A stretch of DNA of 64,000 nucleotides from Felis catus (taxonomy: Eukaryota): contig NC_058378.1 in NCBI RefSeq assembly GCF_018350175.1, forward strand, positions 71,114,001 to 71,178,000. Reading direction: 5' to 3'. A program made the position numbers and the translations under genes. The notes below the pieces were generated by a model that saw only the letters and a list, made by a program, of their open reading frames with translations, was not told where the DNA came from and did no database searches. Each line of letters starts with the position of its first letter. Positions within the stretch are counted from its first letter, which is position 1. Positions 1,506 to 41,439 of the stretch are shown here, in pieces.

Positions 1506-1734
1506 AGTGGCCAGACGGAGACCCGTAGTGAGAGCCAGGAGGGAGAGCCGTGTCCGGGCCGGTGTAACTCTGTGCCATGCGCCCCAGCCCGTGTCGCCTG
1601 CTTCTCTGCCCCGTCTCCCTCCTGGAAGGGAGGTGTCTCCTGCTTGGTGTAGTGGCTGGGCATCTCGGGTGGGACAGCGACCTCCATGCTCCAGGGGGTC
1701 ATAGCGTGACTGACGGCTGCTGTGATCCCGGCAG

Positions 1735-2307
1735 CCCCGAAGCTGAGCCCGGAATGCAGAATCGACGTCCTCTTCCTGCTGGCCAGCTCAGCGGACACCA
1801 CCCTGGAGGGCTTCCTGCGGGCCAAGGCCTTCGTGAAGCAGTTTGTGCAGGCCTCACTGGGCGAGGACTCCCGGGCCCGCGTGGGTGTGGCCCGCTACAG
1901 CAGCGAGCTGATGGTGGCCGTGCCCGTGGGCGAGTACCAGGACGTGCCGGACCTGCTCAGGAGCCTGGATGGCATCTCCTTCGGCGGGGGCGCCACCCTA
2001 ACGGGCAGCGCCTTGTGGCAGGCGGCTGAGCGCGGCTTCGGGAGCGCCGCCAGGACGGGCCAGGACCGTCCCCGCAGAGTGGTGGTCCTGCTCACCGAGT
2101 CACCCTCCCAGGATGACGTGGCCGGCCCGGCGCGTCGTGCGAGGGCCCGAGAGCTGCTCCTGCTGGGAGTGGGCACCGAGGCCGTGCGGGCAGAGCTGGA
2201 GGAGATCACAGGCAGCCCAGAGCGCGTCCTGGTCTACGCCGGCCCACGTGACCTGTTCCGCCAAACCCGTGAGCTGCAGGGGAAGCTGTGCAGCCGGCCG
2301 CCGCCAG
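1735..2307 (+). CDS. VWA2: VWA2 exon, second VWA domain (APKLSPECRIDVLFLLASSAD...QGKLCSRPPP)
   Basis: cag acceptor ending 1734, CAG|gtgag donor at 2308; core of ORF 1722..2546. Confidence 0.95.
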
Positions 2308-2359
2308 GTGAGGTCCCAGGACTCCACGGTGCTTCCTCTTACGAGGCGTTAAAACAGGG

Positions 2360-2660
2360 TGCATTTGTCATAGCTAATGAATCCACAAATATATTATTAT
2401 TTACTAAGGTCTATACTTTGTTCAGATCTTGGTCTCTACCTAGTGGCCTTTTTTTGTTCCAAGGATTCTGTCCAGGACCCTGCGTTATAGTTGCCCATCA
2501 TGCCTTCCTAGGCTTCCCCGGGCTTCTCAGATATTCCTTGTGCTGACGTGGTGTTTAAAAACCGACAAATCCGATCCACTGGCTCCCCTCTGCACTTGGC
2601 AGAAAACCCAGACTCCTTCCGCTGGCTTCTGAGAGCTCCCTGTGGCTGGTTCCTGAGATC
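2360..2660 (-). mobile_element. Old L1 (L1MC/MD-like) 3' fragment
   Basis: AT-rich segment resembling antisense L1M 3' UTR. Confidence 0.5.
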
Positions 2661-27320: not shown

Positions 27321-27860
<540 letters not shown>

Positions 27861-29395: not shown

Positions 29396-30461
29396 TAGTT
29401 TTTTTTTTTTTTTTTTTAAATAAAGAAGCGGAGGGTGGGGGAGGTTACATGCGTCAAGATATTAAATCCAGGGCCATTTACAGTCAGCGGAAGGAGAGTA
29501 GGGAGGTGGGGAAGCATGACTGCATCCACTCTGGAGCATGCCCTGCGACAATCATCAAGGAGAACTCTGAAGGCCAGTCCCCAGCCCAGTAAATAGGATC
29601 TAAGTAAGAAGGCCCAGTTAAACTGATATGTGCGAGCTTTTATACCCACAGCTCGGTACTGAAAGGCAACAGGGAGAACTCAAGATAGCTGATTTGACCA
29701 GGTGGGAGGAGCAGGGTGATTTTACTTGAAAAAAAAAAAAAAATGTCCTCATGGTCACTGCAGTATTATCTGTACAAGAAGTGAAGAACGATACAATGTC
29801 ACTGGGATGCCTCCTTCAGTAGCAAAACTTAATAGAGGGAGGCCTCCGAGTTTAGCACGAAGAAGTGGGCCGAACCCCCTCACTGGTTGTGCTTCTGGGG
29901 TCCCCCAGGTGTTCCGTGGAAAATTCTAACACCTGTCCATCCACTCCGGGGCGGTCTGCGGAAGCTGAGAACAAACAGCAAATCGCAGTAGCTCAAACTA
30001 CCTGCAGCCGCACCGGGGGAGCTTGGGGCAAATGCACTGTAACTTCATTTATGTCTAAGAGCGATCATAACACGGCCGTGAACGTAGGGCAGTCTTAAAG
30101 CAGGTACTTGGCTTCCAGGGGTCACGGGACGAACAGGAGTGACAGGCAGGATGCTCGGACGATTCCATCCCATTTCTGCACCCCTGGGTGGACCGCACCC
30201 CAGCATGTGCTGCTGGAGGTTTTGGGGAACAGAGGGCAGAACCACCACGCGGCGTTCTGGTCCTTCGCCCACGCATGCGGATGCCAGCTGTGGAAGGCCG
30301 AGTAAGTCTCTCCTTCCGGAAGGATGACACATGCCGTGCACATGCAGGAACCATGCACAAGGCCCATGCGCAGGGCCACCCTCGGGGCATGCATCCTATT
30401 CCCTGAGAGGCAGGCAGCAGGCACCAAGTCACTGGCATTCAGCTCTGGGGACAGACAGTAC

Positions 30462-30545
30462 CCAAGGTGATCGTGGCGTAAATGACTCCGTCGGGCACCT
30501 GGACCCATCTGGGGATTCCAGTGGGCGAGAATCCACCACAGTGAC
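30462..30545 (-). CDS. AFAP1L2: Probable alternative cassette exon of AFAP1L2 (GHCGGFSPTGIPRWVQVPDGVIYATITL)
   Basis: Long pyrimidine tract plus tacag acceptor, TGG|gtact donor, 84 nt, phase 1-1 matching the flanking exons, no stop, cluster of GCATG motifs downstream. Confidence 0.72.
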
Positions 30546-32205
30546 CTGTATGAGATCCAGAAGCACAGAGAAAGGCAAGGTGGAGAGACACAAGCTGAAG
30601 AGAGGGACAGACCCAAGCGCGGAGGGTGACACAGAGAGACCCAGTTGTCCACCACAAGCCAGTACTTCCCCACTGGAGGGGTGGGTTCTCAGGAGAGGCC
30701 CTAGCCCGACCCAGGACATCTTTCCTCAGCACCTTCTCAACCAGAGATGACCGCGCAAGTACTCGTCACCAGTGGGAGGTGCGTAGAAGGCCCCTCTGGC
30801 TGGTACTTTTAAGAAGCACGTAGGAATTCTCTGCTGTCTCTTTGCAGAGGATTCTGTGGCCTTAGAGGGTGGCTGAGCCCACACTGGAAGGCGGCTAAAC
30901 TACCTGGTGAGCAGTGATCCCCACATAGGACAGTTCACGAGAAACAGACGTGTACTGTGTCACCATAACCTGGAAGGGAGGTTATCTGCTCCAGGAGCTG
31001 CCAGGTCCCCCACACGAGACACTACAGGCCAAGTAGCTGATGTCTCGGGCAAGGAGGCCTGACCCTCGTATCTCCTGCACAGGCCATCAGGGCGCTTACT
31101 AAGCTGTTACTCGGAGAGAGGGACCTGCCCCATCAGAGCCGGGTGGGGACAGTGCTGATGAAGCAGGACAAGAGCCCAAGCAACCGCTCTCTTGAAGGAA
31201 GTCCGCAAAATGGCTGGTGGCCAGTGGACCAGGGCAGGGGGCAGGGGGCCAGAGGTCACTCCTCCCGGTGTGACCAGCACGTGTCACCGCTCAAACAGGT
31301 GCAGGGGACAACAAGCAGGAAGTGAGGGCAGGCCGGCTTTCATATGCCGGTGACGCCCTCCCTTCGCGGCCCGTGTGACCAGTTCTCCCCAGGTCGTCCC
31401 CGGTCCTTGTCCCGGCACGAGAGGACAGGCCGTCGGCATTCTTCCTGCGCACCTTGCTGTGTTCACGCCGTCCCCACAGGGACGCCCCGGTCCCGGCTAA
31501 GACCAACCTGAATTCACAGTCGAGAGACAAACCCCGACAAGCTTGAGCCCACTTGTTGATGACGAGGTGTGTGTCTGCCCCACAGACAGGCCCCCGGGAG
31601 CGTCTGGGAGGCAGGCCCCGGCTGGCACGGGCCACACCCCGGAGAGCCAGGCTTGCGAGGCTCAGAGGTGCTCGTCACGGTGAGTCACAGCTTCCTCCTT
31701 CCACACGCATGAGGATGGCCGCGCCGCACCGTCGGCTTTGCTCTGGAATCACAGCCCCGCCGGAGACGTGGCAACACCCCACACGCTCAGTGGGTTCAAG
31801 CTAAGTGATGCCCGCCCACAAACCAGGAGAATAAAATAACCTCCATCCAAACAGGCCCTCACCTCCCACACAGTTCCTGGGACCGGAGGCAGTAGGTAAA
31901 GTGTGGAGAAGGATCCGACGCGGCTCCAAGGGACCCGTCCCACGTGATCTCTGGTCCTGTTCCTTACAGAGCCGACAACACCCCTCTCCAGCCAAGTTCC
32001 TTCCCACCACCAGGGACCCTTGCCTCTTGCATCTGCAAACTGCTCTGTGCTCTCAAAGACCTTTCACTTATCAAGGAAAGGAGCAGACTGAGGAAGAGGG
32101 GGGAGCGAGAGGGCCAGAGTCCAGCTGCTCGAGTAGGCCCGTGATACTCTTCCTTCTGGAACTTTTGGGGCCTTTCTGTGCTAGCGAATCCCTACGCCAA
32201 GAGCA

Positions 32206-33415: not shown

Positions 33416-33506
33416 CGTTGAGTGATGTGTCGTATGGCTCAGCCTCTTCATAGTAACCCTCTGGAGACTCAATCTTGGGGACGGAGAGTTGCTTCCGCTC
33501 TGGAAT
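33416..33506 (-). CDS. AFAP1L2: AFAP1L2 exon (IPERKQLSVPKIESPEGYYEEAEPYDTSLN)
   Basis: ccacag acceptor, ACG|gtac donor, 91 nt; YYEE SH2-type motif. Confidence 0.95.
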
Positions 33507-41364: not shown

Positions 41365-41439
41365 CTTTGTCTTGGGACTCCGCATTCTGTGGCCTGTTGA
41401 CGGTCACTTTGTTCATATAAATGTACTCCTCATCGGAAC
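41365..41439 (-). CDS. AFAP1L2: AFAP1L2 exon (SSDEEYIYMNKVTVNRPQNAESQDK), with the YxxM PI3K-p85 motif at 41414-41425
   Basis: ctgcag acceptor, AAG|gtac donor, 75 nt. Confidence 0.94.

Follow-up and report, generated by a model that had tools for sequence, protein, structure and literature searches.

Gab1/Gab2, IRS-1, and FRS2 are docking adaptors with constitutive, paired SHP2 sites, and adaptor-bound SHP2 usually promotes RAS/ERK signalling (Gab1, IRS-1, FRS2). The N-SH2 domain is the SHP2 domain whose engagement activates SHP2. In receptors, ITIMs are toggled by splicing, as in PECAM-1 exon 14, CEACAM1-L/S, the PZR short forms, and Drosophila Draper-II. The Y-A-T-I core occurs in the PD-1 ITSM and in the EPIYA-C/D motifs of H. 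pylori CagA, which are SHP2 ligands.

The window analysed here, a 64,000-nt stretch of Felis catus DNA, carries AFAP1L2, which encodes XB130 on the minus strand and whose exons agree with the Lynx rufus protein at 94-100% (within-exon alignment). With an optional 28-residue exon included, XB130 resembles Gab1/Gab2, IRS-1, and FRS2 in that a cytosolic, membrane-targeted adaptor combines a PI3K YxxM site with an SHP2-type tyrosine motif. Unlike in these adaptors, the site of XB130 is optional, and the SHP2 C-SH2 matrix gives no second one. XB130 also resembles the splice-toggled receptors, in which the choice of splice form decides whether a tyrosine motif that docks a phosphatase is present, the dock in XB130 being a predicted one; the receptors are transmembrane, whereas XB130 is a cytosolic PH-domain adaptor with an internal, frame-preserving cassette. 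The original prediction had considered such a mechanism undescribed, which seemingly holds for this instance, whereas splice-toggled phosphatase docks as such are familiar in receptors. The four-residue core of the PD-1 ITSM and CagA EPIYA-C/D is the same as that of the exon; the ITSM Thr at -2 was observed in 0 of 62 distinct inserts, and identity with an ITSM was rejected.

XB130 is phosphorylated by Src-family kinases, binds the SH2 domains of Src and Lck, activates Src, and binds p85 through Tyr54, according to a review whose available text mentions seven putative splice variants without detail (PMC4068053). The form described there and in PMC10300607, as far as their available texts go, is the 818-residue protein, in which the exon is skipped; according to the latter, AFAP1L2 limits the survival of T cells and sustains that of cancer cells in a manner that the paper calls undetermined. 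No publication on the function, regulation, or phosphorylation of the exon was found among the openly accessible papers and supplements searched, and the available parts of PMC4153654, PMC4905481, and PMC6563982 contain nothing on it. The exon is annotated and ancient, yet apparently unstudied, and the cluster of RBFOX motifs downstream of it is new here.

The cassette exon and its catalogued isoforms

On the minus strand, the edges of the cassette exon read tacag/GTCAC at 30545 and TTGG/gtactg at 30462, the donor of the upstream exon reads AACG/gt at 33416, and the acceptor of the downstream exon reads cag/AGGAC at 27667 (Table 1). The junctions 33416^30545 and 30462^27667, put forward in the original prediction, match these donor and acceptor positions. 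With one carried-over base, the frame reads GHCGGFSPTGIPRWVQVPDGVIYATITL. The prediction of an 84-nt, phase-symmetric exon agrees with the AG/GT edges, with the equal phases, and with the translation, and a frame-preserving length combined with equal phases and AG/GT ends is what characterizes a cassette exon. The end of the upstream exon and the start of the downstream exon, at 27667, are both in phase 1, so that the frame is preserved when the cassette exon is included. In the same adaptor, the Y-I-Y-M codons of the PI3K YxxM site lie near window position 41420, and the exon tyrosine is 102-104 residues from this site (Tyr54/56). At window positions 1710-2543 on the plus strand, convergent with the 3' end of AFAP1L2, a long open frame resembles an exon of a von Willebrand factor A domain, which we take to be likely that of the neighbouring VWA2 gene.

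Table 1. Positions in the window of the cassette exon, its neighbouring exons, and the associated motifs
Feature	Position	Strand	Basis or remark
Cassette exon, 84 nt, 28 residues, phase 1/1	30462..30545	-	Sequence and RefSeq proteins with the same insert
Upstream exon, YYEE / YDTS tyrosines, phase-1 end	33416..33506	-	Sequence
Downstream exon, YESY tyrosines and PH1 start, starts in phase 1	27462..27667	-	Sequence
Motif half of the exon, D/E-G-V-I-Y-A-T-I-T-L	30463..30492	-	Invariant columns; Tyr codon 30478-30480
GCATG cluster (six motifs, of which three are TGCATG), 70-184 nt past the exon	30274..30393	-	Probable RBFOX enhancer
Weak 5' splice site TGG/GTACTG	30456..30461	-	Departs from the consensus at -2, +4, +5, +6
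Long pyrimidine-rich acceptor region, repeated TCTCT	30546..30640	-	Sequence

The exon is present in the human isoforms 6 (NP_001337995.1) and 20 (NP_001338009.1), the prefix NP_ denoting curated RefSeq entries, and RefSeq carriers in other species include mouse XP_036017467.1 and Puma XP_025773542.1. The exon is skipped in mouse Swiss-Prot Q5DTU0 (825 aa), in rat NP_001292113.1, and in the 818-aa forms of chimpanzee and gorilla. This bears out the claim that it is absent from the canonical protein; the accompanying suggestion that it may occur in predicted isoforms was right as to its occurrence but too narrow, since the two curated human isoforms carry it as well. An 846-aa protein with the insert and an 818-aa protein without it are encoded on intron-free sequences of 3,544 and 3,193 nt, respectively, and these entries are taken to be spliced transcripts because such lengths are too short for introns. 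The exon is real, yet previously catalogued, and is not a discovery.

A 40-residue query gave five matches among seven candidates, with the 28 residues between identical flanks in the RefSeq models of Puma, Lynx, and Suricata. A regional protein query gave 1,072 matches, the best 120 of which were used, bringing the protein set to 127. Of these 127 proteins, 120 have both flanking anchors; the insert has 28 residues in 119 of the 120 and is longer in one, and its carriers include rodents, afrotherians, marsupials, birds, an alligator, a tortoise, and lizards. In annotation models, included and skipped forms are both found in mammals, birds, crocodilians, turtles, and lizards, and also within one species, as in mouse, rat, koala, Anolis sagrei, Alligator sinensis, Gopherus, and horse. 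The protein set contains 212 included forms, 70 skipped forms, and 4 others, figures that are skewed by the choice of query and uninformative on the inclusion level.

Several models vary at these junctions. The insert of Microcebus murinus begins 26 residues earlier, the additional residues being translated from the pyrimidine tract, by an upstream alternative acceptor or as a model artefact. Diceros bicornis minor has a different 16-residue insert without the tyrosine motif at the same junction, probably another predicted exon. The Glu that opens the downstream exon is present in some bird, alligator, and turtle models and missing from others, which suggests that the acceptor there is a tandem (NAGNAG) one; in the window, no second AG is seen three bases past the acceptor of the downstream exon.

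Candidate RBFOX elements around the exon

The (U)GCAUG element is the RBFOX site and, in the downstream position, favours inclusion, and RBFOX proteins are important in muscle, heart, and the nervous system, as stated in the available part of bioRxiv 10.1101/2021.04.20.440659. In the 250 nt downstream of the exon, six GCATG motifs were observed versus 0.79 expected, a count reached in 0 of 20,000 dinucleotide shuffles, and this densest cluster on the minus strand is the only 250-nt region with five or more. No GCATG was observed within the exon or in the 550 nt upstream. The TCTCT motif occurs six times in the 250 nt upstream, against a strand average of 0.71 per 250 nt. A 13-nt tandem duplication (2.1 copies, 30351-30377) overlaps part of the GCATG cluster and may have multiplied the motif locally.

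In 19 genomic read-through frames of the exon from other species, the Cys-Met dipeptide was found 11 times among 879 downstream residues and 0 times among 1,084 upstream residues; the dipeptide needs TGYATG, so that TGCATG and TGTATG are indistinguishable, and the frames are related, not independent trials. The downstream Cys-Met was seen in 9 of the 19 frames, partly at the offsets of the window itself, and the six frames of bird/reptile type are short and lack it. Immediately past the donor, 17 of the 19 frames read G-M/T-A-C, which would allow a GCATG some 7 nt from the start of the intron; the window has G-T-V-C there and lacks such a motif.

Judged from these motifs and from the weak donor site, the layout of the exon is likely of the regulated, RBFOX-enhanced type, and its inclusion is probably RBFOX-dependent, hence biased by cell type. 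The candidate motifs in AFAP1L2 are reminiscent of the RBFOX-activated INSR exon 11, where, in the part of the account available, a downstream (U)GCAUG lies amid YGCY elements. In PMC5989265 (12 of 15 files), the one neural splicing table that includes Afap1l2 does not show this exon: its two Afap1l2 rows describe a different one, roughly 50-55 nt long, and neither row is labelled an Rbfox target. In the supplements of PMC5630039 (11 of 27 files), no match to the AFAP1L2 exon was found.

Constraint on the tyrosine half and its predicted readers

Among the 62 distinct 28-residue inserts, Gly-3, Tyr0, Thr+2, and Ile+3 are invariant (62/62), and Ala+1 (61/62), Val-2 (60/62), and Glu-4 (61/62) are nearly so, Val or Ile occupying the -2 position in 61. 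The first half of the insert is variable, up to 2.8 bits. In a 38-sequence alignment, the column identity is 0.94 for the ten motif columns and 0.65 for the first 15 insert residues, compared with 0.96 for PH1 and 0.83 for the whole protein. In addition, the exon Tyr is never Phe in the 62 inserts, whereas the nearby Tyr130 is Phe in rodents. As read from these columns, only the tyrosine half of the exon is constrained, which indicates that selection acts on the motif. Conservation of the tyrosine motif, on which the original prediction had been staked, is therefore observed, Tyr0 being kept in every distinct insert. In Arvicanthis niloticus, the otherwise invariant SSSYESY stretch past the exon has diverged, and the exon motif is intact.

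For the frogs, a profile search gave a 28-residue insert in Ascaphus truei; the insert of Discoglossus pictus, 15 residues long, consists of the motif half alone. Both have Glu at -2. The exon is therefore likely to be older than the amphibian-amniote split. Among 25 proteins (one representative per 50% cluster) and 38 candidates, a coverage weak for absence, neither a fish or shark version of the exon nor a version in the paralogues AFAP1 and AFAP1L1 was found; 5 of the 25 profile-search matches were unrelated repeat proteins and were dropped. The 28-mer had no match among the Pfam families and solved structures searched. In a predicted model, built from the shallow 38-sequence alignment, the insert (residues 136-163) is coil with pLDDT under 30, and residues 47-199 are low-confidence coil. 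This is what one would expect of a linear motif that lies within a disordered linker.

The position matrices in the supplements of PMC10065799 were applied to the 23 scorable tyrosines of the human long isoform, the SH2 domains scored being the SHP2 C-SH2 and Src SH2 domains, two of the three with matrices. For SHP2 C-SH2, the exon tyrosine scored best of the 23, at 2.09 (99.8th percentile of random), and the next best scored 0.32, leaving no second site of the SHP2 C-SH2 type in XB130 by this matrix. For Src SH2, the exon tyrosine scored 0.96 (85th percentile), below YEEA (2.21) and YDYV (2.19). With the c-Src kinase matrix, it scored 2.15, at the 98.5th percentile (within a range of 98.5-99.2th), and is by this score predicted to be a good Src substrate. 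The SHP2 C-SH2 score ranges from 1.85 to 2.33 among the amniote inserts and is 1.15 in Ascaphus, which has Glu at -2. The C-SH2 domain prefers a beta-branched residue at -2, a small one at +1, and an aliphatic one at +3, as stated in the part of PMC10065799 consulted, and the invariant positions of the insert coincide with those that this domain reads (-2, +1, +3). In the Src SH2 matrix, Ile is the favoured residue at +3 and Ala is tolerated at +1; the SHP2 matrix, not the Src SH2 matrix, rewards Val or Ile at -2.

Measured peptides were taken from the available part of Dataset S3 of PMC11287265, with a binding cut of 3.2, the look-alikes being the rows listed with Val at -2, Ala at +1, and an aliphatic residue at +3. 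Of the 14 natural look-alikes listed there, five passed the cut with C-SH2 and three with N-SH2, and none of the seven V-x-Y-A rows in which an aliphatic residue is missing at +3 bound (PMC11287265). Close likenesses to the exon are MPZL1/PZR pY241 and pY263 and CLEC12B pY7, which share a V-x-Y-A-x-L/I core and have measured SHP2 SH2 binding: MPZL1 pY241 (VIYAQL) gave 5.1 for N-SH2 and 7.8 for C-SH2, and MPZL1 pY263 gave 24.2 for C-SH2 (PMC11287265). The YATI peptides of PEAR1 pY925 and MEGF10 pY1030, likewise with measured SHP2 SH2 binding, bound C-SH2 with values of 5.3 and 2.5, respectively, and did not bind N-SH2 (0.59 and 0.60; PMC11287265); both are without the -2 Val. In another screen, MEGF10 pY1030 gave 14.0 for c-Src SH2, higher than the 9.4 for SHP2 C-SH2. 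The sites of MPZL1, CLEC12B, PEAR1, and MEGF10 are located in the tails of membrane proteins, unlike that of XB130. The canonical XB130 Tyr54 peptide did not bind SHP2 (0.47, 0.64).

The exon core, scored over five central positions, reached 2.53, above all 16 analogue cores scored, and only 6 of the 11 analogues with a core score of at least 2.0 bound. A pattern match thus predicts SHP2 binding poorly. For an SHP2 proximity-labelling study, 12 of the 23 files in the supplement were searched, and AFAP1L2 was not found in them. Another AFAP1L2 tyrosine is a predicted SHP2 substrate in the available part of PMC9481563, an entry that fits SHP2 docking.

The favoured reading and its rivals

In the reading that we favour, RBFOX proteins bound downstream would promote inclusion of the exon, and RBFOX-rich cells would make the long form, whose 28 added residues place a single invariant tyrosine motif in a linker predicted to be disordered. 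Src-family kinases quite likely phosphorylate the exon tyrosine, which would then dock SHP2 via the C-SH2 domain; given phosphorylation, the matrix scores, tempered by the measured analogues, lead us to lean slightly towards SHP2 as the main reader. The long isoform would resemble Gab1/IRS-1 in bearing both an SHP2 site and a PI3K site (Tyr54 YxxM) on one PH-domain adaptor. The recruited SHP2 may trim the adaptor's own phosphotyrosines and dampen PI3K recruitment, and by analogy with Gab1 and IRS-1 the output would shift from PI3K/AKT towards RAS/ERK, not off. Since SHP2 on adaptors usually promotes RAS/ERK, the switch would more probably redirect signalling than turn it off. A lone C-SH2 site would localise SHP2 more than activate it; SHP2 could be fully activated only with another site, which a second XB130 chain may supply. 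Taken as a whole, an optional, RBFOX-promoted, Src-phosphorylated exon that docks the SHP2 C-SH2 domain has about an even chance of being correct. If the exon docks SHP2, the long isoform is wired differently from the published descriptions of XB130. A splice-controlled phosphatase dock might then explain why XB130 helps some cells and restrains others, and the exon opens a direct way to examine why its effects are opposite in T cells and cancer cells.

The original prediction had called the motif ITIM-like. The pattern S/I/V/L-x-Y-x-x-I/V/L is indeed present in 61 of the 62 distinct inserts, the exception being the frog Ascaphus. The same pattern is found by chance in 3.6% of random 28-mers of XB130 composition, and the skipped form also has one match, SSYLNV. 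The pattern alone is weak at this random rate, and it is therefore conservation, not the pattern, that raises the motif above chance. XB130, moreover, is not a receptor tail; it is a scaffold of the cytosol that contains two PH domains plus a coiled coil. No partner site scores on the C-SH2 matrix, the frogs have Glu at -2, and YATI peptides bind Src SH2. The pattern therefore stands and the label does not: as the motif is not in a receptor tail and the C-SH2 matrix shows no second site, an SHP2 dock of the Gab/IRS type describes it better.

The main rival to SHP2 docking is that the motif is an extra dock for a kinase SH2 domain (Src family, Csk, or Syk), which would tune the XB130-Src loop instead of docking a phosphatase. 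The preference of MEGF10 YATI for c-Src SH2 (14.0 versus 9.4), the matrix with its favoured Ile at +3 and tolerated Ala at +1, and the retention of YATI in frogs despite the missing Val at -2 are consistent with this rival, as is the reported binding of XB130 to Src and Lck SH2 domains with activation of Src, in the available text of PMC4068053. However, the Src SH2 score of the exon tyrosine is in only the 85th percentile, better sites exist in YEEA and YDYV, and the -2 Val/Ile of 61 of the 62 inserts is rewarded by SHP2 and not by Src SH2. We regard a kinase dock as rather unlikely.

An exon that is truly inhibitory, whose recruitment of SHP1/SHP2 would shut signalling and restrain chronically stimulated T cells, is improbable. 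The ITIM pattern of the inserts and the near analogues among the rows listed, which are tyrosines of the inhibitory receptors CLEC12B, SIGLEC10, LAIR1, and KIR3DL2, are in its favour, and AFAP1L2 limits the survival of CD8 T cells under chronic stimulation and promotes that of cancer cells, as stated in the part of PMC10300607 available. On the other hand, the words 'isoform', 'SHP', and 'ITIM' never occur in the main text of PMC10300607, RBFOX control points to heart, muscle, and nerve instead (the available part of bioRxiv 10.1101/2021.04.20.440659), and the exon has one motif only, without a membrane anchor. The broadest reading, in which a tetrapod-old, RBFOX-controlled exon turns XB130 from a Src/PI3K-activating into an SHP2-recruiting adaptor and thereby explains the opposite survival effects, including a checkpoint-like role in T cells, is quite unlikely.

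No more probable than the inhibitory exon is a conserved half that acts independently of phosphorylation, as a beta-strand packed on a domain or partner or as a tyrosine-based sorting signal, with the SH2 fit incidental. Its hydrophobic residues alternate, as would suit a beta-strand, the sorting pattern of adaptor proteins has the form Y-x-x-hydrophobic as well, and no phosphosite report was found in the literature searched. However, the segment is an unattached coil in the model (pLDDT under 30 from 38 sequences), and the Tyr is never replaced by Phe in the 62 inserts, unlike Tyr130, which is Phe in rodents. The tryptic peptide holding the exon tyrosine is acidic, has 35 residues, and includes three tyrosines; its properties, together with its being missing from the canonical databases, possibly account for the lack of phosphosite reports.

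Finally, a low-level or near-neutral exon, whose protein motif would be a by-product of conserved splicing signals, is very improbable: the canonical human, mouse, and rat forms do skip the exon, but its length and frame are kept throughout amniotes, the substitutions in the motif are mostly conservative in the protein (I/V/L, L/M, D/E), and one frog retains the motif half alone, in frame.
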